DNA from: Macrostomum lignano
Lineage: Eukaryota
DNA: 64,000 nt
NCBI GenBank assembly: GCA_002269645.1
Contig: NIVC01001075.1
Location: 186,001-250,000 of the forward strand
Direction of reading: 5' to 3'
Position numbers and translations under genes: made by a program. Positions 28,013 to 64,000 of this stretch are shown here, in pieces. The notes below the pieces were generated by a model. It worked only from the letters and a program-made list of their open reading frames with translations. It was not told the origin of the DNA and did not search any database. Every line of letters starts with the position of its first letter. Position 1 is the stretch's first letter.

Positions 28013-28223
28013 CTGAACAGGAAGGCGTTTCATGAGCTCGGAACTTCAATATCTTCAAAAAGTCTTGATACCTTCATAGTCACTTTCGCTGGCTTGAAGG
28101 GTGACTAAGGGGATACAAGTGGAGAATAGAGGCCGGAAGACACACACAAAAGACTTTACCTACACAGAGACCAGACATACAAGTGGAGAGTAGAGGCCGG
28201 AAGGCACACACAAAAGACTTCAC

Positions 28224-29212
28224 CTGCACAGAGACGAGGCAGCAGCACAGCATGAGCTGCGACCTGGGACTCGTGTAGGACGGTTTCTTCATGAGCGACT
28301 TGACGGCCCGATTGAAGATCCGGCTCAGTCTGTTTGTCTTGGTGAAGATGGCCGAGTAGATAACGCTCAGACTGAGCCCGTTGAACACGCGGAAGAAGCC
28401 GCAGGTCACCGGTGTAGGCGGCGCCAGCATCACAAAAGTGGTGCAGAAGGCCATCATGGCGCCGCCTAGCATGACGTAGCAGAGCTCGCGTCCCGACGCG
28501 CGAATCAACGGCGTCTGATTGTAGCGGACAAAGACTGCGAGAATAAAGACAGTGCAGGCCAAGCCGGCCATGCTGAGCGTCATCGGTAGGATGCCCCACA
28601 CGCTGTCCAGTCGAAGAGTTTCAACCGGCAGAGAATTGCACGCATTGTAGAAACGGTTTGGCACGCTGCCAAGAGGACAGTCAGCGCAGAGGCTATCGTT
28701 GAGAACGATTTGGTACTTGCTGTCGCAGGGCACGCATTCCCAACAGCAGGTGGCCGTCTCTTTGTTCGGTTTCACGGTTCGATTACCTCGCCCGCACGGC
28801 TCCGAGCAGACAGACACGGGTGGCGATGATGAAGCTCCTTCGCCCCAGGCGAGGCGGTCACTGTCCAAGCTGAGCGACCCGCCCCAGCTGCCAATCTTCC
28901 GGTAGCGAAATCCGCCCTTACCTCTCCTGTGCTGGTACTGGAACACTTCGTACAAGGACTCGCGATCGCCCAGCTGATTGAAGCGTACTGTGTCACCTGA
29001 AGTGCCCGTGAAATTGACTCGGCTGATGAAATCTCGCAGCAGAGTGCCGTTCAGTGTCGCGTTCATTGGGGCGCAACCCTTGGGGTACTCGTCCGGGCAC
29101 AGAGCCTCGTGCATGCGGTCGATGGCGTGAGCCATGGCTAGCACAGCATCGACTACCATTGGAACCAAGCCTTCCTGCTCGTAGCGGCTGTGAGTGCCAA
29201 TGACTTCCTTGC
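28224..29212 (-). CDS. GRM: mGluR exon 5 (Venus flytrap C-terminal part, cysteine-rich domain, TM1-TM4)
   Basis: 989 nt, cgcag|GC...CAG|gtgaag; contains YEQEGLVPMVVDAV, VCSEPC...CCWECVPC, ASGRELCY, TKTNRLSRIF. Confidence 0.97.
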
Positions 29213-29286
29213 CTGCGAATGCGTGGTTCACAGAGAGGCCGCTTGGACTTGTTTTAGATGGGTCTACAGCAAATCTACAGTCCATA

Positions 29287-29400
29287 ACCCTAACCTCGAA
29301 GCCCTAACCCTTAACTCGAACCCCTAACCCTAAACTCGAACCCCTAACCCTAAACTCGAACCCCTAACCCTAACCTCGAACCCCTAACCCTAACCTCCAA
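29287..29400. repeat. ~20-bp repeat containing telomere-type CCCTAA (CCCCTAACCCTAAACTCGAA)n
   Basis: About 5-6 units inside mGluR intron 4. Confidence 0.85.
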
Positions 29401-36894: not shown

Positions 36895-37452
36895 TAAGAG
36901 ATTGATAGAGAGTTTAAGAGATTGATAGAGTGTTTGAGAGATTGATAGAGAGTTTGAGAGATTGATAGAGTGTTTGAGAGATTGATAGAGAGTTTGAGAG
37001 ATTGATAGAGAGTTTGAGAGATTGATAGAGAGTTTGAGAGATTGATAGAGAGTTTGAGAGATTGATAGAGAGTTTGAGAGATTGATAGAGAGTTTGAGAG
37101 ATTGATAGAGAGTTTGAGAGATTGATAGAGAGTTTGAGAGATTGATAGAGAGTTCGAGAGATTGATAGAGAGTTTGAGAGATTGATAGAGAGTTCGAGAG
37201 ATTTAAAGAGAGTTTGAGAGATTGATAGAGAGTTTGAGAGATTGATAGAGAGTTTGAGAGATTGATAGAGAGTTCGAGAGATTGATAGAGAGTTCGAGAG
37301 ATTGATAGAGAGTTTGAGAGATTGATAGAGAGTTCGAGAGATTGATAGAGAGTTTGAGAGATTGATAGAGAGTTCGAGAGATTTAAAGAGAGTGTGAGAT
37401 ATTGATAGAGAGTTTGAGAGATTGATAGAGTTTGAGAGATTGATAGAGCGTT
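36895..37452 (+). repeat. 20-bp satellite (GAGATTGATAGAGAGTTTGA)n, left flank of the Maverick
   Basis: About 28 units, ending in the variant ...GATAGAGCGTT that abuts the element. Confidence 0.97.
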
Positions 37453-37909
37453 ATACCATACAAAATCACCAGCAATCCATGGCCAGCAACCAAACTAATT
37501 TTAATGTTGTTAAGGTAAAATTATAAATTTTTCGCTTCATTTTCGCTCGTCTTCACTTCGCTCAACTCGCTCCGCTCATCCTCGTTTCATTTCGGTAAAA
37601 ATGTATAATTTTACCTTAACAACATCAAAATTACCTTTTGTTTCTGAAATTTCGCTCTCGTCGTTCGCTTGTGGTTTGCTGGTGATTTTGTATGCTTCCA
37701 ATACTTCCAACACTTCCAACACTTCTAACACTTCCAAACAATTCCAACACTTCCAACACTTCAAACACTTCTAATACTTCCAACACAACCAACACCAACT
37801 AACTGATAATAAACCTCACCCGCCCGTGCCGCAGGCACGCGGACGAAGTCCGACCGCCCCGAAGGGGCTTGGGGCACAGAAAAGCATGATTTTTCTGTTA
37901 GTAAAAATA
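37453..37909 (+). repeat. Maverick terminal repeat copy 1 (~457 bp)
   Basis: Aligns by eye with 49291-49794 along its whole length; lacks the first 9 nt (AGTAGTATT). Confidence 0.9.
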
Positions 37910-37986
37910 AACCGAGTTTACAACTTTTCAGTAAGTGATACTTCGAAACTGTTGCTAAAAATGCTGAGATAATAAAACAGCATATA

Positions 37987-38394
37987 TTGAATGGAATAAT
38001 CGATGAGGTTTTTTTAAAATACAACAACGGCGAGGAACTAAAACTTTATCCACTAGAGTTAGACGGTTTATATGATTTAGAACAGGAGGGAGAGCTAATT
38101 TTTCAACTTGGTGATTATTTAAATTCAGACGATTGGGAGGTTCGTTCAACGGATTCTGAGTCAACAAATAGTTCGTTTGAAACTAGTGAATGAAGTGAAT
38201 AGAGAATGAAAGTGAAATTTTTATGTAAAAAAATGGAATTAGGCAGCAGACCCCACTTTTCAATAACTGAATCAACTCAAACAATATTTAATGCACTCGA
38301 TTCAATAAAAAAACTTATAAAGGATGAAATACTCGATGAAGTATATATATACAACCAAATAAAAAGATATATCCACTTGAAATTGGAGAATTAG
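37987..38394 (+). CDS. two small hypothetical viral ORFs (68 aa acidic; 62 aa, probably frameshift-truncated)
   Basis: ORFs 37987-38193 and 38206-38394 inside the element; no recognisable motif. Confidence 0.4.
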
Positions 38395-38678
38395 ATTATA
38401 TTTGGGATAAGGGGGAAGAAAGTCTTCTTCTAGCACAATGTTTAAACTGTTAAAAATTATAACTAAAAATCACCCCGATGAATTACTATTCAGTGACAAA
38501 AACAAATTTATTGCGAAAAATATAAGTAAAAAATGAACTTAAATTATTCCTACATTGGCAAAGTGCCAATTAAAGATTTTCAAGATAATGTTAGTTTGAT
38601 AGCAGTTGAACAAGTTACAATAATATTTTTAGTTCTAGTATTAATAATAATATTGTTTTTATTTGTTATAATTTTTTA

Positions 38679-38930
38679 TTACCTTGTTGCCTTAAGTAAT
38701 TGATTCTTATAAAACGATCCTAATATTTCTTCAAGTAAAACATCTAATATGGTTAAAATATACTTATACCCTCCGTCGTTCGGCATAGCCATTAAATCAG
38801 CATACCAAATTTCATTCTTTTTAAAGTCCATGATTTTTCGATAAAATTTAGATTTTCGGTATTCTCTATGAAGATTTTTGCCTCATCAGAACTTAACCCA
38901 CCACCACTTAATACTCGTAACAAACATTCA
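38679..38930 (-). pseudogene. int: Maverick retroviral-like (rve) integrase, internally deleted
   Basis: Reads LHREYRKSKFYRKIMDFKKNEIWYADLMAMPNDGGYKYILTILDV, then directly LLEEILGSFYKNQLLK*. These match the N-core (WQADL..M...GYKYILTVIDV) and C-terminal (GE.I.GSFY..EL) motifs of Maverick integrases. Confidence 0.8.
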
Positions 38931-38959
38931 ACACAATTATTTCCATGTTGATTGTAATT

Positions 38960-40314
38960 AATTCCTAAACCAAATTTAACTTTAGATTGCAGAATCTTAT
39001 TAACGATGCACCGAGTTAATCTTTGGCCAACCGGGTTACATGGGTTATATACCAGAAACGATGGAACCGCTCTTACAGCTCCCGATATCGCCGATCGTTC
39101 AGGTATTGTTATAGAAAATGATTGGTTTTATAAATGTTTTTCCCAAGCGCAACTAAGAATTGATGGAGCCGAGGTTGAGACATCTAGCAATCCCGAGGAG
39201 ATTAATGGAGTTTTGAAACATTTAAATTATACCTATTTAACAAAACAGGTTGGTGACAATGTTGGATGGATGCCAGATAAGGGTGATGGTGGAGCAATTA
39301 ATTTCTCTCAAGTACCACCGGCAGCCGGAGCCGATACGGCAGCACTCATTAACTATCTGAATACGAATATAGTTCCAGTTGTAACTACTCTAACCAACCC
39401 TAAAAACATGAACACCGGATTCATAGATCGTCAGAATAAATTCCCAGTAGCAGTTTTAACCGATGCAGCCGCATATGAGCAGGACTTTTAAATCTTCCCA
39501 TTATTAGGTTTCTTCTCACCAAATCGTGTTTGGAAAGGATTAAGATTTGGTGTACAATTGAAAATATTTGGCGGGTATCTGGGCAGAATACTTTTTGGAA
39601 ATTCAACCTCAACCGATTTAGCAGCTAGAATAGTTTCAATTCAATTAGTTTTCCCAACGATTGAGGTAACAGCTCCACTTATCTCTTATAAACGATCAGT
39701 TAATGAAGGATCAGGAAATGTTCTATTTGAATCGTCGGCACTTTATGCGAACTATAAATAAAATCAGGATTCATTCCAGAGGCAAATTCTCACATCAAAA
39801 CGTCGCGTGAGATATATTTTTGCTTGGTTTAAAATCACAAACAGAACTAGCAAAAGAGCTAATGGAGATTTATATTGGATTCAATCTGATGCAGTAGCAG
39901 TTCAAGCCGCCACCGAAACTGACACCGCAGCCTTAGCAACTACCGCATTTAATCTCCAGAATATTCGCTTGCAGGTTGATCCTGTAGGATATTATCCTGT
40001 AAAGATGCCCTTAATCTAAACATGGCTAATAATGACGTTAATGATTTGATAAAATATTATCAGGATTATGCCAAAAACGAGGTGTATGCAGTACCACAAT
40101 ATACTCCCACAGAGTTTCTAAACATTCATCATTTTGGTTTCTAAACATTCATCTAACTGCAAAAAAAGAAAATGTAGCCAATATTGGTTTGAATTATATG
40201 TTAGAGATTAATAAAACCGGAAATCAGGCGGTTGACGCACATGTTTTGTTTCTCGAGGAGTATTTGTCAATTGCTGGCGCCGATGGAACAATTATTCAGG
40301 ACACCCCGCTGTAG
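38960..40314 (+). pseudogene. major capsid protein (double jelly-roll, Maverick/PLV type), frameshifted
   Basis: ORF pieces 39006-39491, 39558-39761, 39807-40019 and a tail to TAG 40314. Motifs: DGT...END.F..CFSQAQLRIDGAEVE, G.N.GW.PD, RVRYIFAWF, NLQNIRLQV...YYP. Capsid call from recalled motif pattern and gene context. Confidence 0.75.
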
Positions 40315-40399
40315 GCGGTGCAGGACATAGTCCGTCGCGCCATTGTAAATGTCGCAGTTCTCCGAACGTCGCACCAATGTAAATTTTTTTTCCTAAAAA

Positions 40400-51306: not shown

Positions 51307-54300
51307 ATGGAACAAAGATTAACCCCAAATCAGATTCGACAACTACTTGCTAATGAGCGCGCACAGTTCAATCGATTACAAAGACAGATTGAACAAATCG
51401 AAATGCGCCAAAGAAACTTAGAAAGACAAAGACGAGATGAAGAAATACAAGCATTAGCAACTAATTTAAGAGCCGAATATGAAATGAAAAGATTAATAGA
51501 AAATGCACAATATGAAGCAAGAATAGCAGAGTTAGAAAAAAATCAAAAGAAAACCAGACGTCGAAAACCACGGAATCAATCACCTGAAAAATCACTAGAA
51601 GAGTTTATTCGAGTATATCGGTTTGAGCCAATGGAGAATGTATTAGATTTTATTGAAACACAACTCTCAAACGGATATAGTGTTGAAAATACTAATGCGA
51701 GAGTCCAATATTTCTATCGCAATAGCGGAGACGATCGAGAAGAAATTAATCAATACTTAGCAACGTTTTATAATATAAATCAGTTTCAAGCTTGGTTTAA
51801 ACATTTGGTTGAAAACTATGACATGAATCTAAGCGTGTTTTCGGGAAGACTCAAAATGACACCAAACATAATCACATTGAAACACGAAAGATCAAAGCAA
51901 GGTATGGGCACCAACGTCATGTGTGAAATTGCAGAGTACCAAGACGATTATTGTTATATACCTAGTGATGGAAATTGTTTCTATAAGTGTGTTCAATTTA
52001 TTTATGGTGATAACGCACCATCCAAAGAAGAATATGGAGCTTGGTTGTACGACTCAAGAACCCAAAGAGGTTTAATGACAAATTCAAGAATTGGAAAATT
52101 CAACGAACATTTTAATTTGAACATAGGTTTATATAATCCAAATAATCGCGGCATCGAACCAAAATCCCAAAGGCAAATAAAACACGATTGGTTATTGATA
52201 AATTATTATCACACGACAGATTATCATATTGGCCACTACTGTTTAATATCCAATTAACAAAGAGGAATCGGCCTCGAACGCATAAAAGAAAATTATAAAG
52301 TAACATTCAAAAACTCAACATCGGAAACAGTTAAAGAGATAAAAACGTTTAATACTCCAACAAATCCAAATAATGCTAATGTATTTATATTTGATTTTGA
52401 AACATATTTAAATGATAATCAACAAGCATGCCCCTATGCAGTTGGTCTTTCAAATTATTAAATCTTTTTTCAAAATTCCAACGAAAGCACAGAGACAATA
52501 AAGGCACTAACTAAGGTTTTGATTTCCGATCGAGGGTGTGATTTCAAAACAGATGGAGAGGGTTCGCAACCAAAGGTTGATTGCGTTAGAAAAATGTTTA
52601 AATACCTTGGTTCAATTATGTCAAAAAGATTGTTTTGATAGCACATAATTCATCTAGATTTGATTCATATATACCACTATTTTGCAATATAAAACCAACT
52701 AAATTCTTAAAACACCTAGAGGAATATTATCAATAACTTTAGTAAATGATTATACAACAAAAGAAGTATTATCGTTTATAAACAAAGATAAGAAGAAGAA
52801 TCAAAAGTATTCAAAACAAACAATTACAATGCTTTGTTTGTATCAACACGCATCAATGAGTTTAAAAAAAATTGTTCGTCAGTGACAATTAGAGAAGATT
52901 TGCGCAAGACCGAAATGGTTCATAATATTAGCGAGAGCGATTATTTAGAACGGATAGATGAATGGTATGAATATTTACAATTTGATCTTATTTCTCTATG
53001 TGCATGCATTCATAAGTATAATGAAATTGCATATTCAATTGGAGGAATGACAATGTTTGACACTCTTACATGTTCAAGTTTAACATTAAAATGTTGGTTT
53101 AAAGATTTTGTTAGAGTTGAAGACAAAATGAAGCAATACCTAAAGACAAAAGAAAAAACCAATTACATTAATAAAGTTGAACAAACAATTTCTCCGTTGA
53201 AAATTGAAGATTATTTTGACTTGACTTTTGAACTTGATACTTGAACTTGATATTTTGAAACATCAAAAAAGGAAATATCAAACTTTATTAAGAAAAGAAT
53301 TTTCAATTCACTCACACATAGACCCATATATAAGAAGGTTTTTGCGGGACGCAGTCAAAGGAGGCAGAGTATTTGCACTAACAAATAAATATGAATTAAA
53401 AGCGACTGTTTTCAAACAATTGTAGACATTGTAAAAGATCATTTAAAACACCAACCGCCGACCCATGCGAGGTTATATCAACCTATCTTAAATGTGATCT
53501 TAAATAAAAAAATAAAATAGCAATCAAACAAAAAATCAATTAGGTACGGTATCTGATTGTTTAATGAACTTTGATGGAGTTTCATTGTACCCATCTGCAA
53601 TGTCTGATAAAGATAGCGAATATCCAAGAGCAGAAAGTGCTAGAGTTTTTGATATAAGCGAAGAAAAAGATTCATTGGCACAATTGAACTCACAAACTTT
53701 TAGACCAAAAACAGAGGTTTTGAAGATTATGTATGAGAATCCTAACACTGTTTTTCTCCAACATCTACTATCTAAAGACAAAGAGAAATTTTATAATCCG
53801 GAAACAAAAGCAAATGAAAAAAAAACATTAAATAGATTTAGAAACGGAAAAGTAATTGACACCCTTTGCTCAGTAGACAGACAAGAAATTGTAAGAATGG
53901 GGGAAAGATATTAAAGATATATAGTGGAATCATGTATGAAAAAAATTACGACTTTTCGCTATTTCAGAATTATATTACAAATCTTTTTGAAATGCGTAAA
54001 ATATTTAAAAAAGTAAATAATGAGGCGGGTTCTGAATTATTAGAAACACTACTAAATTCTTTAAATGGTAAAACGGTTCAAAAGGCCATTACCTTCACAA
54101 CCCATCTTCGGAATTTGAATACCTTAAAAAAAGAATACGACGACACAATTAAGTCATATGAGAAAATATGTGATGACCTATTTTTTGTAGAAAAAAAGAA
54201 AGACACAGAAGAATATATAGAAGATGACGATAATCCAGCAATGGGTCTTTGCCCAGCACAATTAGGTATATTTATTTTGGCTCATTCAAGAAGAATTATG

Positions 54301-54898
54301 AATAATTTTATCACATAATTAACGGATCAAAGACTCCGCAAATTTATTATGGCGACACCGATTCTTTGTATATACACAAAAACATTGGGATACTTTGAAT
54401 ACAAATGGTCACGTCGGAAATAATTTAAGTCAAGGAAAAAACTACTATGGAGAAGGTGAAATTATTTTCAGATGTTTCATTGCCCCTAAAATTAAATATT
54501 GTCTTTTGTTGAAAGATGATTTTATAATGGAAGAGAAAAAACATATAAAGGTTGTGCAATGATAAAATTAATTTTGCATCTTTCAAAACTTTATATGATG
54601 GTCAATCAATAAAAGTAAATAATAATGCACCATGGAAACGATCGTTTGAAGGAGGGATAACAATTCCTCAAGGAGATAACGCAAGCATATAAAAAACATA
54701 TACGTCTACAGTTAACACATATAAAGAGAAAAACCTGATAAAAACGGCGTTATGAAACCTTTCTTTAAAAACTATTTTGACGACAAACCAGAACACGAAC
54801 AAACAATTGAATTTTATAATAATTTACTTTTTGACATCGATTATAATTGTTTTGAGTTGGATATTGATGAGCTAAACGCTATTACTTGTAAAAACTAG
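51307..54898 (+). pseudogene. polB: protein-primed family B DNA polymerase (terminal-protein region, vOTU, exonuclease, polymerase) with multiple stops/frameshifts
   Basis: vOTU IPSDGNCF (51958-51981) and GHY (52231); ExoI FDFET (~52390); ExoII AHNSSRFD (52641); ExoIII YLQFD; KGGRVF; motif A FDGVSLYPSAM (~53570); motif B LLNSLNGK (~54050); motif C YYGDTDSL (54345). Confidence 0.95.
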
Positions 54899-55439
54899 TC
54901 GAACAAAGTTCCCATGCCCATCAGGCATGTTATTTTTAAAAAAACAAAACATGTTATTCCTTAAGTAGAATATCCATTTCAATTTCATATTTAATGGAAC
55001 ACTAATTTTCCTCACAGTCAGAAGGATAACTTAAATATTCTTTTATTTTTTTCTAGGTATTTTTATTCTTTTTACAAGTCGATCTATTTCGTTTTCAATG
55101 ATCATTTCAGCATAATTAATGGCAGATTTAAGAAAACGTTTTCTTTTACCAAATTCATATCGAACGCTAAATAAGTCTTCATCATTATTTTTTTCTATTT
55201 TGATTATAATTCATTGCATGTATTTTGTTTAATTTATTATTCGTGAGAACACCAAGTCTATGAGACTAGGAAATATTCAAAGCGAAATGTTATTGAAAAA
55301 GTCATTAGAATTTTTATGTATTGATAAAAAATTTAAACCTCGAATCAAAAGACAATTACCATTATGGGAGGAATATATAACTTATGCAATAAATAAATTA
55401 CGGAATGTACAGTTCGACCGTTGAAGAAGTTGTTGGTTG

Positions 55440-55694
55440 TTAAACAGGCTGGTCGTCCCGAAGGGTCGCGTCTATAGTTTCTATTGGCGGAGGTTTGGGG
55501 ACGTCCAAACGCAATTCTGTCAATTCCATATCAGTAAAAGATTCAACATCCAAAATTCTATTTCTTTCATCTAAATACTTTTTATATAATTCAATGGCGG
55601 TTGGTAATTCATGTATTGTAATATCACTATCATCTAAAAAATTTTGAACATATAAATATAATTGATTTTTATATTGATTTGCAATGTTTCTCAA
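55440..55694 (-). CDS. hypothetical viral ORF, 84 aa
   Basis: Open frame inside the element; no motif recognised. Confidence 0.35.
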   Translation of the reverse strand: MRNIANQYKNQLYLYVQNFLDDSDITIHELPTAIELYKKYLDERNRILDVESFTDMELTELRLDVPKPPPIETIDATLRDDQPV

Positions 55695-56511
55695 AGATTT
55701 ATATTTTTCCTTTTTAAGATATAATTTGATAGCTAAAAGAATTGAAAGAAATTAAAATTGTAAATTGTAATTGTTAATTATAAATTGTTAATTGTAAATT
55801 AAAATTGTAAATTAAAAGAAATTTCTTATTAATTCAAAACTCGATATTGAACCAATTGCAATACCTAAAAATAATTGAGAGATACTAAGGATTGGAATCG
55901 ATTGAATTATACCCAAAACAATTACACATAACATTGATAAGCTTCCAAAACCAATATTAAAAAAAATCTATATTCCTAATATGATTTGAAATTCTAATTA
56001 CTTTTTTGTATATAAATCATAATCGCTAGTTATTCTTTTTACATTGCTTCTCATGCGCCCTTTACGTTGGTTAAATAAATCGCGTTCCTTTTTATCCGCT
56101 TCAGACACCGACATTGTCGTCTATTTTTAATAGCACCAAAATGAATTCCCCACGCTCTTTAGGAATTTGTCCAGAACTCAATAGATATTGGATTGGAGTA
56201 ATTCTTTCTTTTTTCTCCCATTTAAATGTAATCTTCCAAAATTCTTGAAGTATAATATGATTTTTTAACTAATTCTAATTTAGTTAAACTAATTTTTCTA
56301 ACTAACTAATTTCTCTAACTAATTTTTTAACTAATTTTTTTTAATTAATTCTTGAAGTCTCTTATTGTCTTAAACATTCACACCACTAAATAAAATTCTA
56401 GTATGAGATTTAAAAGTTTTTATATTTGATTCTTGTTTTGGAACCGGAATAACAATATTGTTCTGTCTAATTGATGAAGTTCTGCTAAAACCATTTTATA
56501 TACCAACATTT

Positions 56512-59259
56512 TTATATAGCTACAGGTGGCTCTTCAAGATATGCGCTAGCAGCAAAATTACATCCAGCAGATGTGCTACCACAAACGGCGGCGCAGCGAA
56601 TAAAATGTGCAGCATCCGCTCCTCCGGTTCTTGCTCCAAATCCCATAAGAGTTCCAGTTTTATCCAACTCTCCCCAATTTCCACTATCATATGTAAAAAA
56701 AAATTTGCCCAATTGGCGTATATGCTTTAGTTGAAACATTGAATGTGCTTAATTGATACCAAACTCTTTGATTTAAAATATTAATTTCAAATAGATGCCT
56801 ATCTCCATTATCAATATTAGCGTAGGTTACTGTTTGATCGGAGTCATTAAGAACATCAGCACGCGAGGATCCATCTGCTTTTTTAGAACTCCAAAGTAAG
56901 TCAAATCTATCATGCCACTCACTCGCAAATACAATTAATCCAGCATCAGTTGTTAATCCAGCCCCACTTTCAGTTGTTGGCCGTTCATGACAATATGCAT
57001 AAAACCAAACTGCGTCCGCTCCTGTTCCTGAGTGTCACGTTTTTGTAGTCGTTGTAGTCCCAAATTAATGGTGAAGTCAAACTCTTGCGGAGTGGGTTGT
57101 GTAGCGGAAGCACTTGGCGTATGATGGCAGAGGACTGCCGTAAACCGTTTATTGTCGTTATCAATATGGTTAATGTCAATACAAGAGTTATAGCGTTCTG
57201 GGGCACTGGCGGCTGCAACAACGGGTCGATGTAATTGAAGTTATGAAGTCAAGCAGATGATGGAGGATGATGGTGAAGCAAAGTAGCAAGTGATGGTGCT
57301 GAGTACGGTGGTGGCAGTGAGTAGCAAGTAGGCAAGTAGTGGCGTGATTGGGCGCTAGCCCGTGGCAGTACAAGGTGGAGCACGAATGCGTAAACAAGTC
57401 TGGCCCAGACAGGGTGGGGCCGTGGCGAGAGATAAGGAGAGACAAGCGAGAGGGAAAGAAGGAAAGGAAGGAAGGAGGAGGAGGAGCAAAACCCCCCAAC
57501 CCGCCGCCAGGCGGGGTTAATAAAGGAGCGCAGGAAGGTTAGCATAATAAATGCGGAGAGTTTTCATTGGCTGGCGGGGGAAAAGCGAGAACTGAAATTA
57601 TTGATCGCGCGAGACCCTACAGACGTACGCAAAGATTACCATGTACGCAATGATTAGCAATTGATACAGATTCGTTGGGCGCTACTACAAGTAAATGTGA
57701 GAATACACGATTGGAGAATATTAAATGAGAAATTGCAGTGAAATTGTAGTCCAACGGCCCTTTTGCGGGACCACCTTAAACTGACAACGTCACACTGAGG
57801 AATTAGCAACTTTGAAAAAGAATGATTCAGCAATATTTTTAAAATGTGTGAAATTAAATTGTAATGCCCCACTTACACCACCGGTTTTACGAGTAATTCT
57901 AGCTCCATTTTGATAATCAATATAAGAAGCATCTCCAATAAAAGACCCCGTTGGAAAAATATCACCAGCAGTTGTTGGATTTTGGTAACCAGTCCAATTA
58001 CAAATTACGGCTTCATATAACGCGGCATCAATCGCGGGAATACCATCCAATTAAATTTTATCATTAAAAGACATTATTCAATCTGCTGTTTGTGTTACGC
58101 GCGTATCTACATAATCTTTATTAACAACCGATCTGTTGTGATTTATAACTGAGATATTTGTAAGTGTATTACCACCCATGTCAATAGATTGATTAACTAC
58201 TCCTAAATTCAAATCAATAACTGTAAAAGTCTGTCGATAAATTTGGAATGTAAAAAGACCTGGATTTGTAGCACCTGAGGTTGAAGTATGACAAAATAAT
58301 CTGAAATATAAATATTCTTTATCAAAATTTTGAGTCACATTAAATGTTTGAGTTGAATTATTTAATGCAGTATTTTCCATTGGATTTAAAATATCCCAAC
58401 TTGTATTGTCATTACTCACTTCAAATCTCCACGACGCGGGGTTTTCGGTTGAGGGTGATGGCCTAACACACAAGTCAATCTTATAACACATTATCGCGGA
58501 TGGACATTGAACTTTAATCCAATAATCAGTTTGTGTTGCAGCAGTTGCCCAATCCGTTGCATCATCGCCATCAAACGCTTTCCAACTTGCAAAGGTGCTT
58601 GCAAGCATTAAATGCCGTGCTTGCTGTAATCGCAAAACCATTTCCACTCCAATCTGACATTGTTGGTATATGTCCAGTTTCAACAGTTTGGAATATATTT
58701 TGTTTAGGGTTTCCACCATTTAATAAATTATCAACTTCTGTTTTAGTATAGGAATCAGCAATGTTTATTTTTAAATTTAATGAATTATCAACTTCTGTTT
58801 TTGTATAGGAATCAGCAATATTTCTTTTTAAATTTAATGAATTATCAACTTCTGTTTTAGTATAGGAATCAGCAATATTTCTTTTTAAATTTAAGGAATT
58901 ATCTATTTGCGTTCGAGAATAGGAATCGGTTATATCTCTTTTTAAATTCAAGGAATTATCTATTTCAGTTCGAGAATAAGAATCAGTTATATCTCTTTTT
59001 AAATTAACAGCAGAATCAACTTCAGCTTGACTGTAAGAATCTAATATATTGCATTTTAAATTTAATGAATCATCAATTTGAGTTTGGTTAATTTGGGTTT
59101 TAGTATATGAATCTGCTATATTCCGTTTTAAATTTAATTTAGTATCTATTTCACTTTTTTATACCTTTCATGGAAAGCAAACGAAACATTAATGCCAGTT
59201 GATTCCCCACCACCAGTTCTTGCAGTTCCATTCCATGAGGGTGTTCCAGTAACTAACAT
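56512..59259 (-). pseudogene. putative fibre/receptor-binding protein: 19-aa YTKTEVDNSLNLKRNIADS repeats, F5/8-type-C (discoidin)-like domain, MGG.TLTN...KDYVD motif, L-type-lectin-like domain
   Basis: 57-bp repeats at 58720-59150; WKAFDG...WAT...WIKV...SWRFEVSND..SW (ORF 58078-58719); ARITRKTG...FFFKV..SSGTGADAVWF...IDNGDRH after removing the solo LTR. May be two adjacent genes. Confidence 0.7.
57033..57794. mobile_element. solo LTR, 762 bp, 5-bp TSD CTGAG
   Basis: CTGAG|TGTCACG...CGTCACA|CTGAG. Removing it restores ANSS-GTGADAVWF in the lectin-like frame. Confidence 0.88.
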
Positions 59260-59284
59260 TTTTAGAGTCTATTTTTACAATTTT

Positions 59285-60108
59285 AAAATGAATCTAAAAT
59301 CTTCTTAAAAGCTTCGGGTGATTGAGTTAGCGATTTCAGTGCTGGGGTACTGGCGCTGTAATCGCGTTTAGCTGACAGGGCGGTCGCCTTTGTGCGTGCT
59401 TGCGCGGGCTGTTCTTTGTGCCGGCGTGTGGGGGGTGGGGGTGCGCAGGGTGTTGGGGCGGTTGGCTTTTTGGCGGTTGGCCTTTTATGTGCGTGCGCGA
59501 TGTTCTGTTCAGCGCATTTGCCCTCGCAATTTTTTTTCTGCTTTTCCTTGCTTTTTCTTTTATCCTATGATTTTGGTTCTCCTGTTTTACTCAGCAATTG
59601 TGTTTCTCTTAAGCTTCGATACTATCGAAATATACTTGTAATTGCTAGCGGGCTCGCTTCGCCTGCCCTTCGTCGTCCTCGCCACCCCCGCGCCTTCCGT
59701 CTTTGTCCTGTTAGCTAATTAGAATTATTAATTCGATACCAAAAAATACAGCGCCGCCTGTCCACAATAACTTGTATCAAAGGTTTGAAACTGTTCGTGA
59801 TAATCTCCACAAAAAACGATTTTTGGTATGATTAAATTTGTCTTTTATTTCCTGCAATGGAGGTAATGCATACGAATAAAAAATATAACAAGTTTTGGTT
59901 TTGAATAAACTGCTGACCAATGTACGCCGTTTTCTTTAGTCGTTTCAATATTGACAATGAATGATCCAAATTGTGGTAAATCTTTTATTTTATCGCGCAT
60001 AACACATCTGAATGGTTTTATTTTTAATTGACGCGCCCAATTTGTTAATTCTATATTATTTGTTGTGCCGGTTCCATATCTTTGTTTGAAAGTATTCCAA
60101 TCGGTCAT
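59285..60108 (-). pseudogene. adenain-like cysteine protease, interrupted by a solo LTR
   Basis: FIVNIE...GVHWSAV (catalytic His), F(D)SY.LPP, FQTFDTSYCG (Gln and catalytic Cys); frameshifted. Confidence 0.88.
59357..59750. mobile_element. solo LTR, 394 bp, 4-bp TSD GCGC
   Basis: GCGC|TGTAATC...AAATACA|GCGC; a GC-rich island in the AT-rich adenain gene. Confidence 0.85.
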
Positions 60109-60292
60109 TTTATGTTGCCGAAAAACTTTTTGTTTTTGGTAAGTTTATTAGTTGGCGGTTTTAATAGTTCCTTTCTGGTTTTTTCTGCTTGAAGCTGTCA
60201 TAATTTGGTTAATCCCGTTTCATAAATATTATTTGCTTTTTGAACTGTTTCTGTTTGTTTTTTTATATTATTATTGCCCATTTTTAACCTAA

Positions 60293-61078
60293 TTAAACTT
60301 GTTTTATTCTTAAAATTATTGTTATTGCTTGACCGCCAAAACTAGTTAATCTATCTGAATCATCTACAACTCGTATATAAATAGATTGTAAATGATATTG
60401 ATTCAAAGGATAATAAATTGGGGTTTGGGGTGCAACTATCATTTTATCTCCAATTGGCACCGCCAGAAAGGGAATTGAATAAATGATTCCACACTGAACC
60501 AAAAATCCATTATCGTCCGTTATATATCCACCGTTTGAAATATCCGTGGTAATATTTATTGTATTAACTCCGCCTTCAATGTTTCCTACGGTATCACCCG
60601 TGCTTGACGTGGTAACAATTCTTGAATTAAATCCTAAAATAGTTCTAAATGAATTTGCAATTGTAAAATAAACTTGATATCCTGCCGCTAATGTCAATGT
60701 GAATCTTCCTGATGGTAAATCAACTCCTATAACAATTGCATCCGTTACCTAATCTCCATTTGCTGTTAAATCGGTCTGTATTACAGTGTTCAAATCAGTA
60801 TAATTATATGCTCCTGGAGTTATGGTAATTGTTGTCCAATTTGCTTCAGAATCTTTAGAATATCTAAATTGATTATTTGTTGCATTAATTAATTGTGGTA
60901 TATTGAAAACTGAAAACATAATTAAACCAACTTGATAACTTAAACTTTGATCTAGACTTAATGGATCACGCAATTGAATCCTTTGCTCGCTGGTTGTCAT
61001 TACAAATTGTAATGTCGGGCTAAATTTTGAACTGGTTCTATCAACCAGTTGTTTTATTGTGTCTAAGTTTGCTGCCAT
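60293..61078 (-). pseudogene. minor capsid protein (penton, single jelly-roll), one in-frame stop
   Basis: ITITPGAYNYTDLNTVI, TILGF, P..PIYYPL...SIYIRVVDD..RL..FGGQAITIILRI match the Maverick/PLV penton pattern; ORFs 60749-61078 and 60293-60697 share a frame. Confidence 0.85.
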
Positions 61079-61093
61079 TTTATAGTGTTAAAA

Positions 61094-61639
61094 TCAGTCC
61101 TCTTCCTCTTCGTTATCTTCTTTTATTAGTTTTGTTATAATTCTATTTCTACTTTCTAATCTTGGGTTAATAAACATATGTTTGTACCGACTTTCTTCCC
61201 AAATGTTTCTACACATATTTTTGAATGATTTTGAATCCAATCCGGGATTAAATCTCCTTTGAATATTTTGTAAATCATAATCATCTAAATCAAACATTAC
61301 ACAACAACTTGCATTCTTTTTTTATAATTGTATCTAATTCTCTAAATGATTGAGTAAGGAAAAATGCGCCAATTCCATCTCCTCTACCGCTAACAAAATT
61401 TCTTTTTGCAATTCTTGATTACCATCATTATCACAATCATCAAATACAATAAGTGTTTTATCATCTTTTGGAATTTGATCATATATTTGTTTTTTGATAT
61501 TTGAATTGTTGGGGCGTTGTTGGCAATGTTTTCTGGATGTTGGGCGGTTGTTCTAACCAAATCCTTTATGTCATTAAGTGTGAATCGCGGTTCATCATCA
61601 TCCTCATATTGCTCATATGATCTTCTAAACGAGATATAT
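61094..61639 (-). pseudogene. packaging ATPase, C-terminal half
   Basis: ISFRRSYEQ...KTLIVFDD (Walker B), FVSGRGDGIGAFFLTQSF...IKKNA (A32 motif), HMFINP. Confidence 0.9.
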
Positions 61640-64000
61640 TGTTGTAACCCGTCTCTAGCTCCTTGACGAAATTTACATGCGAATCGACAGGCTGTGGCGG
61701 CTGGTCAGTCAAGTCTATCGGTAGGCGCATCTCCGTGCCATAGACCATGTAGTGGGGAGTATAACCCGTTGCTCGATGCACGCTTGATCGGTACGCCATT
61801 AACGCAGAGCTGACAAATTCTTCCCAGTCGTTTCGTCCTGAGTCCTCTAGGCAGCACTTGAGGATGGATTTTAAACTTTTATTGAAGTTTTCTACTTGTC
61901 CATTTCCGCTCGGATGATAAGCTGTGGTTCTGGACTTGCGGATCTCGAGTATCCTGCACATTTCGCGCATCACTTGCGATTCGAAGTTCCTTCCTTGGTC
62001 ACTGTGCAAAGTACTCGGACATCCATGCTGGCTAATCCATCGATTGAAAAGCGCCCTTGCCACCGTCCTTGCCTTCTGGTTGCGAAGCGGGTACGCGTCA
62101 GGCCACTTCGTAAACGAATCTTGGACTGTCAGGAGATAAATGTTTCCAGCCTTACTCCGCGGTAGCGGCCCGACAATGTCCATCATGACGCAATCGAATG
62201 GTGCTGCGAATGTCAACGGTTGCAGGGGTGCTCGGTTTCGCTTGCCCGGCTTTGACTTGCAGCAGGTGGCACAACCGCGAATATATTCTTCAATGGCACG
62301 AGACAATCCTGGACGCCAGTAGCGCTGAAGCACTTTAAATTTTGTCTTCGCAAAGCCCATGTGGCCACCTCCCACTCCCTCGTGTAGGGTTTTCAAGATA
62401 CGATCCAATGCCTTTCGTGGCAGCACCATTTGATACTCATCGCGCCTGTCTTTGTTTCTCACAAGGAGCACGTTCTCTTGCAGCACCAGGTCGTCTTTTC
62501 GAGTCCAGACGGCTCTAGCCAGTGGACTCCAAGCTGTCTCGCTTTTATCTGGAACTGGGTTTGAGCCAAGCGCTTCCTTTACTGTTCTCAAATCGTCGTT
62601 TTGATCCTGCTCGCTTGCCAGATTGCCGGCTGAGAATCGTTCAAATTCGACTGCATTTAGTCCTTCTGGATGCTGCGCACATGCCGGGCATGTCTCCGCT
62701 CCGAAATGTCTCCGTACTGGCTTCCTCGACATTGCGTCCGCGTTGCCATGCGATCGACCTGGTCTGTGAACGATGCGGTACTGAAATGGAGCCAACTTCT
62801 CCAACCAGCGAGCAACCTGTCCCTCGGCGTCACTGAAGTTTTTTAACCATTGCAGGCTGCTGTGGTCCGTTCGCAGACAGAACGCTTTTCCCAGCAGATA
62901 GTATCTGAATTTCATGATGAAAGTCACAACCGCTAGTAGTTCTAAACGAGTCGTACAATAGTTGCGTTCGGCTTGATTTAGTGTCTTGGACCCATAGGCG
63001 ATCACTCGTTCTGCTCCATCTGGCTGGACTTGAGAAAGTACCGCTCCTATGCCCATCTTCGAACTGCCATCAGTATCGAGGATAAACTCTCCGGCATCCG
63101 GGGAGAAATCCGGATGAGCCATAACCTCTGAACTTGTCATTCGTTCCTTCAATGTTTCGAACGCCAGCTGCTGTTCCGTTTTCCATTCAAACTTTGCGTC
63201 TTTTGTTGTCAACCGAGTTAGAGGCGCTGCTATTGCGGCGAAATCTTTAATAAACTTTCTGTAATAGCCACACAGGCCCAAGAATGAATGCAGCTCCTTT
63301 GAGGATCGCGGTGTTGGCCAGTTCTTCACTTCTTGAACTTTCTCCTCATCGGTACTGATGCCAGCAGCCGACAGCGTGTGACCGAGAAATTTCACTTGCT
63401 TTTGCAAAAAGTGACACTTCTGGGGCTTCAGGCACAAATTTGCTTGCCGCAACTTGCTGAATATTTCCTCCAGTCTTCTCAGGTGTTCATCCACGTCGGT
63501 TGACCAAACCAGTAGATCGTCGATGTAGACGAGACAGGTTTTCCACATCTGCTTGTCCAAAACGGCTGCCATCAACCTGGTGAATGTTGCTGGGCTGTTC
63601 ACTAAGCCGAACGGCATAACCTTCCATCGAAATTGTCCGCGATGCGGCACTGCAAACGCCGTCTTGTCCTGATCCTGAGGTCTCACCCCTACTTGCCAAA
63701 ACCCGCTGTGAAGGTCCATTGTCGAGAAGATCTTGGCGCCGTGTACTGCCTCCAGCGCATCATCGACCCTCGGCATCGGCACTGCATCCTTGACGGTGAC
63801 CTCATTCAACTTCCGATAATCGACGCACATCCTCATTTCCCCTGATTTCTTCTTTACGCACACCAAAGGAAAGCACCATGGTGACTGTGCTTCTTCGATC
63901 TGCCCCTTTTCCAGCAACTCGTTGACTTGACGATCTACTTCTGGCTGTAAGTGGGGAGGCAGACGACGCGGTGGGATCTTGATTGGGCGCGCATTCTCGG
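61640..64000 (-). mobile_element. pol: Ty3/Gypsy LTR retrotransposon pol (RT-RNaseH-IN), open frame, 3' end truncated, continues off the window
   Basis: SPWCFPLVCVKKK, RMCVDYRKLN, YIDD, DTDGS...GAVLSQ, HHCC zinc finger, MDIVGP, SDQGRNFES, GNGQVENFN; RT-RH-IN order. Confidence 0.97.

Follow-up and report, generated by a model that had tools for sequence, protein, structure and literature searches.

Viral genes in two blocks

The window, the whole stretch of 64,000 nucleotides analysed here (Macrostomum lignano, assembly GCA_002269645.1, contig NIVC01001075.1, positions 186,001 to 250,000), contains two blocks of viral genes. It holds 71 tandem-repeat rows and no N gaps, tRNA genes or Rfam families.

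The first block, after a terminal repeat (37453–37912, plus strand), contains a putative 67-aa fragment of a retroviral-type integrase (rve; 38682–38882, minus strand; PF00665, E 0.0021, under the Pfam cut-off), and no full-length relative of it was found among 16 candidates. Next on the plus strand is a major capsid protein gene broken by stops and frameshifts (38958–40311), matching P0124 in three frames at 45–57% identity (48% over 333 columns). The structure model of P0124 (pLDDT 64.7, pTM 0.72) retrieved with Foldseek the Faustovirus MCP (E 3e-13) and also the capsid proteins of Sputnik and mavirus, while a PDB sequence search for the capsid gave nothing significant; judged by the predicted fold of this relative, the product is a double jelly-roll major capsid protein. 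The block ends in the N part of an A32-like packaging ATPase (40400–40615, plus strand; in-frame stop at 40604–40606), matched at 73–81% by three relatives, two of which carry PF04665.

The second block opens with another terminal repeat (49282–49797) and continues on the plus strand with an ORF (50451–51083) whose weak match to adenovirus protein X/mu (PF05829, E 0.0058) is a lead only, and with a protein-primed DNA polymerase B (pPolB) with an N-terminal extension (51292–54900, right end approximate). PF03175 matches the polymerase at E 8.5e-8, above the cut-off, and at 1.3e-4; the gene is broken across three frames, in which its motifs were located. On the minus strand lie a frameshifted accessory gene with 57-bp repeats and an F5/8 type C domain (58078–59158), the N part of an adenain-like maturation protease (59848–60144), a probable minor capsid (penton) gene with a stop inside (60293–61087) and the C part of the ATPase, with stops and frameshifts (61094–61639). 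The protease is counted as such on its atlas match ('Adenovirus endoprotease', 0.96; recognition 2428; Peptidase_C5 on 13% of one atlas cluster), the Pfam search of the ORF giving no match. The putative penton matches unnamed viral atlas clusters at 0.98 and Sputnik V18/19 only at 0.89, the latter a lead only, with a recognition of 1905, under the reliable level. For two GC-rich stretches of this block the search for TG...CA termini returned chance-level 4-bp candidates only.

Terminal repeats and target satellite

Mavericks/Polintons are recognized by terminal inverted repeats, which measure from tens of bp to ~1500 bp, (AGT)2 or (AG)3 ends and a 6-bp target-site duplication. The two terminal repeats of the locus, of ~460 and ~515 bp, are 95.5% identical (19 mismatches in 421 gap-free columns). 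Both lie on the plus strand and face the same way; they would have been inverted to each other only in the arrangement before the flip. The AGTAGT cap is present at 49282, and the first 9 nt are gone from the left copy; neither additional copies of the repeat nor AGTAGT/ACTACT caps tied to such copies were found in the window.

Outside both repeats lies a 20-bp satellite, found in the window at 36897–37452 (plus strand, 28 units) and 49107–49278 (minus strand) only, the second array of ~9 units being continued to 49281 by the end of the duplication. The initial annotation had read AGCGTT (37447–37452) and AACGCT (49276–49281) as the two copies of one 6-bp duplication, and both are present in this satellite at opposite orientations. 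The broken units measure 17 nt and 9 nt, so that an overlap of 6 nt restores exactly one 20-nt unit. Moreover, the AGCG variant of the junction occurs in one of the 28 left units, the final one, and four times in the second array. The phase would match by chance in ~1 in 20 cases and, with the variant included, in roughly 1 in 1000, which is an estimate. The duplication pair is thereby sustained, but not the intactness of the left terminus, and the final TT of the left hexamer may equally be terminal-repeat sequence.

Very probably a single element

The blocks stop within one gene. Three relatives of the ATPase align with the N half as far as residue 64–67 and with the C half starting at residue 78, which falls at 61623, in the frame named beforehand (shuffle p 0.002, 0.001 and 0.019; among the remaining frame/relative pairs p<0.05 in one of six), and about two codons of their linker are unaccounted for at the join. 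The halves, both of which match, thus adjoin in the relatives. The exact in-frame rejoining, offered as further proof, carries little weight, because the N half has the stop at 40604–40606 and the C half is interrupted by more stops and shifts of frame.

Core genes are divided between the blocks and none is present in both. Without the terminal repeats, the blocks share no protein match at E<=0.1 and one DNA match of 20 nt (E 0.094), which bears out the complementary gene content noticed earlier. Satellite phase, adjoining ATPase halves, complementary genes and two same-facing terminal repeats support the proposal of one cut-and-flipped element, and both blocks are very probably halves of a single decayed Maverick/Polinton, whose summed size of ~15.5 kb lies inside the 12.7–24.6 kb range of intact vertebrate Mavericks. 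Two independent insertions of one family, each truncated, are highly improbable: the incomplete left terminus makes the left duplication partly ambiguous and the terminal repeats diverge by 4.5% plus two larger indels, but neither block has an inverted copy of the repeat, the satellite phase is exact, no gene is common to both, and the blocks end at adjoining positions of one gene with a matching 4-bp repeat. Two such insertions, each block having a second terminus of its own, had been named as the refuting observation and are already nearly excluded. That the locus arose as an inverted segmental duplication was ruled out, the flanks having no long inverted homology except the terminal repeats.

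The element is dead and its terminal repeats have been converted to direct repeats; no function is implied. Its closest capsid and ATPase relatives are unnamed proteins, a literature search returned no paper combining Maverick, Polinton and Macrostomum, and the lineage may be undescribed.

A probable LTR nested in the ATPase

The ATPase is interrupted at 40616 by an LTR-like element (40616–44195, plus strand) with a TG start, one AATAAA at 43806 and five 19-nt repeats. As read initially, ATAT at 40612–40615 precedes TG, and on the minus strand CA is followed by ATAT (61641–61636, the second ATAT at 61636–61639). TG at 40616, CA at 61641–61640 and ATAT on both sides thus form the TG...CA ends and 4-bp duplication of an LTR insertion. 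A 6-bp reading of the duplication (ATATAT) is possible too. The element stops 1 nt before the terminus seen at 61640. It seems to be an LTR, classified so from its own features, since the window holds no second LTR with which to compare it; no primer-binding site follows it. Four short motifs gave no matches in supplement file 5 of PMC12801592, which covers six flatworm LTR families and was available as a text version with long runs shortened. An AT-rich 2.7-kb insert with repeated subterminal motifs (40806–43522, boundaries by eye) is probably a non-autonomous DNA transposon. A self-contained element at 40616–43952, with CA at 43952 and a 5-bp duplication, was rejected as probably due to chance, as its end cuts through the five-copy repeat family.

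A young Gypsy pol at the second junction

Beyond the ATPase C part lie the terminal 12 nt of the LTR (61640–61651, minus strand) and, adjoining them with no 3' LTR in between, an open Ty3/Gypsy pol on the minus strand (61653–64000, running off the window) with reverse transcriptase, RNase H and integrase in the order typical of the group. The visible frame stops in the integrase at codon 782, and 188 residues of an intact relative are absent; up to that point only 4 of 782 residues differ (99.5% identical), with no stops. The LTR-type insertion into the ATPase with a 4-bp duplication, proposed initially, is supported; this pol and the LTR may belong to one family.

The main clue, absent from the initial annotation, is an 11-nt word: the end of the nested LTR (44185–44195, plus strand) recurs inverted at 61641–61651. 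Each strand of the window has it once; it is the longest word common to both 200-nt junction neighbourhoods, and would match at these pinned positions by chance with a probability of ~6e-6. That the word is native integrase sequence was ruled out, since the intact relative differs from codon 783 on. An inverted LTR end beside a truncated pol implies that both breaks touch the same LTR end.

From 44196 to 49106 the DNA is host sequence on the minus strand, with minisatellites and a two-exon gene (47149–46600) that appears whole and encodes a cysteine-rich protein, which is probably secreted. A continuation of the Gypsy integrase after 44196, which would be proof of a breakpoint inside the window, was ruled out: the integrase tail of P0001 gave no tblastn match there, and an HMM of 85 integrase tails reached at best E 0.19, although it recovered 114 of 120 relatives.

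Proposed origins of the inversion

The initial proposal of an inversion that broke at 44195/44196 on one side is supported; its extent, >20 kb and reaching past the window, was not established. A flip of 44196–61640, with both junctions at one LTR end, needs fewer events. Because the same LTR end lies at both breaks, an inversion of ~17 kb entirely within the window is favoured over one of >20 kb plus a separate deletion, and is probably the correct reading.

The best overall account, to be held tentatively as a whole, starts from a core that is very probably right: one Maverick/Polinton integrated into the 20-bp satellite with a 6-bp duplication and then decayed. An LTR retrotransposon would have entered the ATPase with a 4-bp duplication, leaving what is now a single LTR with its own insert. 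A staggered or template-repaired break may then have occurred at the very end of this LTR, and a second in the host flank, where a young Gypsy copy was cut ~17 kb away, with 44196–61640 flipped between them. Through end-joining, each junction would have received the terminal 11 nt of the LTR, in opposite orientations, and the far one would have lost the integrase tail. The near-identical pol (4 of 782 residues), set against the diverged Maverick repeats (19 of 421 sites), indicates a recent junction and favours one late event over three. Three observations count against this account. What follows 44196 is no continuation of the integrase, so that a deletion or an older truncation must be added; the far break would have to fall by chance in a pol oriented like the interior of the LTR, an orientation that the rivals expect outright; and the duplication of 11 nt is shorter than the 46-bp minimum of the Drosophila inversions (PMC1885836).

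A modified form of the initial proposal is possible, if unlikely. A full-length Gypsy, LTR and pol, would have inserted in the ATPase, a deletion would have taken the integrase tail and the 3' LTR bar 12 nt, and an inversion distinct from it, at least ~22 kb long and starting 1 nt before the 5' LTR end, would have run past the window. The pol does have the orientation of the LTR's own interior (deduced from the single AATAAA on the plus strand), and both the missing primer-binding site and the DNA from 44196 on, unrelated to the integrase tail, agree with it. However, two independent events would each have struck the final 12 nt of an LTR, one of them an extra deletion, absent from the initial annotation, ending 12 nt from an LTR end, and a Gypsy with a pol 99.5% identical to that of its intact relative must also have acquired the 2.7-kb insert, the deletion and the inversion.

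Less probable is ectopic recombination of the ATPase LTR with the 3' LTR of an oppositely oriented same-family Gypsy ~17 kb away, which would produce the inversion within the window. A later deletion would have taken most of the right-hand LTR along with the integrase tail. Host DNA starting at the LTR end and a sense-oriented pol at the other junction are then explained without coincidence, and repeat-mediated inversions have been proposed for C. elegans Polinton remnants (PMC11414722) and cod transposons (PMC12368964). Nevertheless, the left LTR lacks the terminal A expected of a young integrated 3' LTR, and the reading requires both a second copy of the family close by and a deletion that stops 12 nt from the LTR end.

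It is doubtful that the arriving young Gypsy made the inversion in one step, by aberrant one-ended integration in which its damaged end was ligated to a staggered cut where the resident LTR ends. If it did, 17 kb of host and Maverick DNA would have been flipped, and the locus would be a case, fixed in the germ line, of the inversions by aberrant integration known for retroviruses in culture (PMC5041404).

The contig join offered initially as the alternative, with a segment of one element mis-oriented by assembly, is improbable. The DNA is very rich in repeats and the locus is known from assembled sequence alone, but there are no N gaps, and the integrase tail and 3' LTR, instead of lying at a wrong place in the window, are missing from it. 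Only 11 nt are common to the junctions, too short to mislead a long-read assembler, and a faulty join fails to explain their inverted repetition at two reciprocal junctions.

Relation to known systems

The 6-bp duplication, ~0.5-kb terminal repeats, size of ~15.5 kb and the pPolB, ATPase, major capsid and protease genes agree with degraded Mavericks (PMC8097293), and the (AGT)2 cap at one of the two termini, the probable penton gene and the putative rve fragment would add to the likeness. Stops, frameshifts and large insertions also occur in the degraded vertebrate loci, which are 96% of the total. Unlike the copies described there, this element is split by an internal inversion, and its capsid, ATPase, probable penton and protease genes would have been co-oriented, with pPolB opposite. 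At C. elegans eri-6/7 (PMC11414722), a local inversion likewise turns Polinton terminal repeats into direct repeats. That inversion is explained by Polinton copies recombining with each other, and the host gene that it divides is rescued by trans-splicing, whereas here the break coincides with the end of a nested LTR, a dead viral gene is split and the host gene looks whole.

In Drosophila, inverted breakpoint duplications in 17 of 29 inversions are ascribed to staggered breaks (PMC1885836). There, as here, the sequence of one breakpoint is duplicated inverted at both junctions, but the duplications span 46 bp to ~1.9 kb and the inversions several genes, against 11 nt and ~17 kb. A retrotransposon inside an integrated polinton-like or virophage genome is known from Ngaro in EMALEs (PMC8547959); Ngaro uses a tyrosine recombinase, unlike the LTR-type insert with ATAT duplication found here, and the word 'inversion' is absent from that paper. 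A 4-bp ATAT duplication is reported for the Ty3/gypsy-type Spoink (PMC10965091).

Decayed Mavericks, retrotransposons nested in them and inversions with inverted breakpoint duplications have each been described before. The locus, in which a dead Maverick carries an LTR and has been cut by a local inversion, is a clean case of ordinary genome churn and not a new kind of element, and its significance is small, every part being well precedented. Its modest use is that the series of events, from Maverick to LTR to inversion, is ordered at base-pair resolution. It also holds a warning for annotators, in that two seemingly separate viral blocks with direct terminal repeats may be one insertion.

Gene content and termini of the Maverick

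The window is animal-type DNA (0 N) dense in micro- and minisatellites, with 71 tandem-repeat rows, and two AT-rich blocks stand out in it, at 37453-40615 and 49282-61639. To the left, a long exon of a class C GPCR lies at 28080-29303 (minus strand; domains ANF receptor, NCD3G and 7tm_3), and a short inverted repeat pair in host DNA (1155-1228 and 1528-1610, 77% over 84 columns) is possibly a MITE.

The first block contains an rve fragment (E 0.0021, the single match among 44 short ORFs scanned), the start of an ATPase gene and a capsid gene; the fold of the closest capsid relative resembles the major capsid proteins of Faustovirus, Sputnik and mavirus, and a PDB sequence search returned nothing significant. 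The second contains pPolB, an adenain-like protease, an F5/8 accessory gene, the remainder of the ATPase and, as a lead only, a probable penton gene. The gene content had been described in the initial annotation as complementary and not redundant, and so it proved: apart from the terminal repeats, the two have no protein match at E<=0.1 and a single 20-nt DNA match in common. Their summed length, about 15.5 kb, falls within the range of intact vertebrate Mavericks.

Several features interrupt or adjoin these genes. A 57-bp coding tandem repeat (58718-59076, 6.3 copies) lies upstream of the F5/8 type C domain, and the protein carrying both is possibly a fibre-like Maverick accessory protein. 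Beside the protease lies a GC-rich block (59280-59750) in which CTAG comes after a hairpin, at 59662-59645 (minus), an arrangement that resembles a Helitron 3' end. A second one (57200-57750, core 50-59% GC) interrupts the accessory genes; a search for its termini gave none convincing.

Masking of tandem repeats leaves just one substantial repeat in the window, present as two copies of about 0.5 kb (37453-37912 and 49291-49797), both on the plus strand, which differ in 19 of 421 gap-free columns and by two larger indels. The second begins at 49282 with AGTAGT, reported as the commonest Maverick cap (PMC8097293). A 20-bp satellite occurs in the window solely beside these copies, in opposite orientations; its interrupted units measure 17 and 9 nt and, when overlapped by 6 nt, add up to a single 20-nt unit. 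The join carries an AGCG variant, found on the left in one of 28 units, namely the last, and four times in the second array of about nine. Satellite phase and variant have the look of one insertion into one array, one end being later flipped. The matching duplications proposed for both termini are borne out by these units, with the caveat that the first copy lacks its first 9 nt and that the TT at its flank is assignable to either side. Each copy also carries an internal inverted repeat of about 45 bp (86-88%; 37484-37646 and 49322-49566) that could form a hairpin, whose loop in the second copy holds an extra TGTAAA run of about 77 nt.

The split ATPase gene

Of 25 candidates, three proved to be relatives of the ATPase N part (73-81% identity), two of them with PF04665. 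Their residues 1-67 correspond to 40403-40603 and residues 112-246 to 61501-61121 (minus). When the C side alone was compared with the relatives' linker, the sole frame fitting all three was the one originally named, from residue 78 at 61623 (shuffle p 0.002, 0.001 and 0.019); one of the six other frame/relative pairs reached p 0.009. ATAT stands at both flanks of the interruption, where a 6-bp duplication can also be read, and a Ty3/gypsy element with a 4-bp ATAT-type duplication is on record (PMC10965091). Since the relatives match both sides and ATAT is at both ends, the halves are adjacent parts of one gene. The claim that they rejoin exactly in frame stands as to the frame and the ATAT flanks, but about two codons are unaccounted for, and exactness adds little weight because a stop interrupts the N part at 40604-06, and frame changes and two stops break up the C part. 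Satellite phase, adjoining ATPase halves and complementary genes together make it very probable that both blocks are one Maverick, as first proposed.

Gypsy pol and the two junctions

The ATPase is interrupted by an LTR-like element (40616-44195). An AT-rich insert within it (40806-43522) repeats GTCTT-AAGAC-type motifs at either end, lacks a clean terminal repeat and is probably a non-autonomous DNA transposon. The two ends of the last 40 nt (44155-44194) form an imperfect inverted repeat of about 10 nt, and the 17-nt stretch ahead of them resembles the ATPase/LTR join (40603-19) at 88%; both are possibly chance in AT-rich DNA.

The Gypsy pol on the minus strand (61653-64000), whose best named relative is a Macrostomum lignano protein (57% identity), agrees with P0001, an intact relative of 1240 aa, at 778 of 782 residues as far as 61653, beyond which the two diverge. 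The last 188 residues of P0001 had no tblastn match in the window, where an integrase tail profile (85 tails) reached a best E of 0.19; the same profile recovered 114 of 120 relatives. No 3' LTR follows pol. Instead, the last matching codon is followed by one base, 12 nt of LTR end and ATAT. Of these 12 nt, 11 repeat the final 11 nt of the LTR (44185-95). In the window this word is found a single time on each strand, and its chance at pinned positions is near 6e-6. Beyond 44195 lies host DNA, and no primer-binding site was found there. The shared word, overlooked initially, and the host DNA after 44195 thus indicate that the same LTR end is involved in both junctions.

Mechanism and extent of the inversion

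Gypsy pol differs from its relative by 0.5% in protein and has no stops; the Maverick differs by 4.5% between terminal repeats, and its pPolB, capsid and ATPase frames are broken. By these measures Gypsy pol is much younger, and models with several late events are therefore penalised.

We tentatively prefer a history in which the ATPase held a single LTR, whose end would have suffered a break, staggered or repaired from a template, that duplicated the 11 nt; the far break would have struck a young Gypsy some 17 kb off and removed its integrase tail. Inverted breakpoint duplications, ascribed to staggered breaks, mark 17 of 29 Drosophila inversions, although the shortest reported is 46 bp (PMC1885836) against 11 nt here; this history also requires a pol of suitable orientation at the far break, and Gypsy pol is not continued from 44196 onwards. 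Less likely is the original model in amended form, in which a full-length Gypsy would have suffered a deletion reaching to 12 nt from its 3' end, and an inversion would have run from 1 nt off the 5' LTR end to beyond the window. It accounts for the orientation of Gypsy pol, but LTR ends must be struck twice, independently. Recombination of this LTR with an opposite one of the same family, followed by deletion, would account for the positions of both junctions but leaves the missing terminal A of the LTR unexplained, and is rather unlikely. An assembly artefact is improbable, and two separate insertions are highly improbable given the evidence for a single element. These weights are rough judgements, not computed, and the three inversion mechanisms lie within about one order of magnitude.

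Under both the preferred break-and-repair history and LTR recombination, the flipped segment would lie within the window. An inversion of more than 20 kb running beyond it is probably not what occurred, and extent and mechanism probably differ from those first proposed. A two-exon gene (47149-46600, minus) sits intact within the flipped segment; it has a 30-nt first exon and a 76-nt GT-AG intron. Its product, about 157 aa long and without a Pfam match, has an N-terminal hydrophobic stretch, and exon 2 encodes 16 cysteines.

Parallels are on record. Degradation is reported for 96% of vertebrate Maverick loci (PMC8097293), and in Cafeteria roughly a quarter of endogenous virophages carry a nested retrotransposon (PMC8547959). 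Polinton remnants in C. elegans are tied to inversions turning terminal repeats into direct repeats (PMC11414722), and retroviruses that integrate aberrantly in culture can leave host DNA inverted (PMC5041404). The literature search found nothing on this locus, and no open-access paper joining Maverick, Polinton and Macrostomum. The locus is a real, well-supported yet ordinary rearrangement of a dead Maverick.
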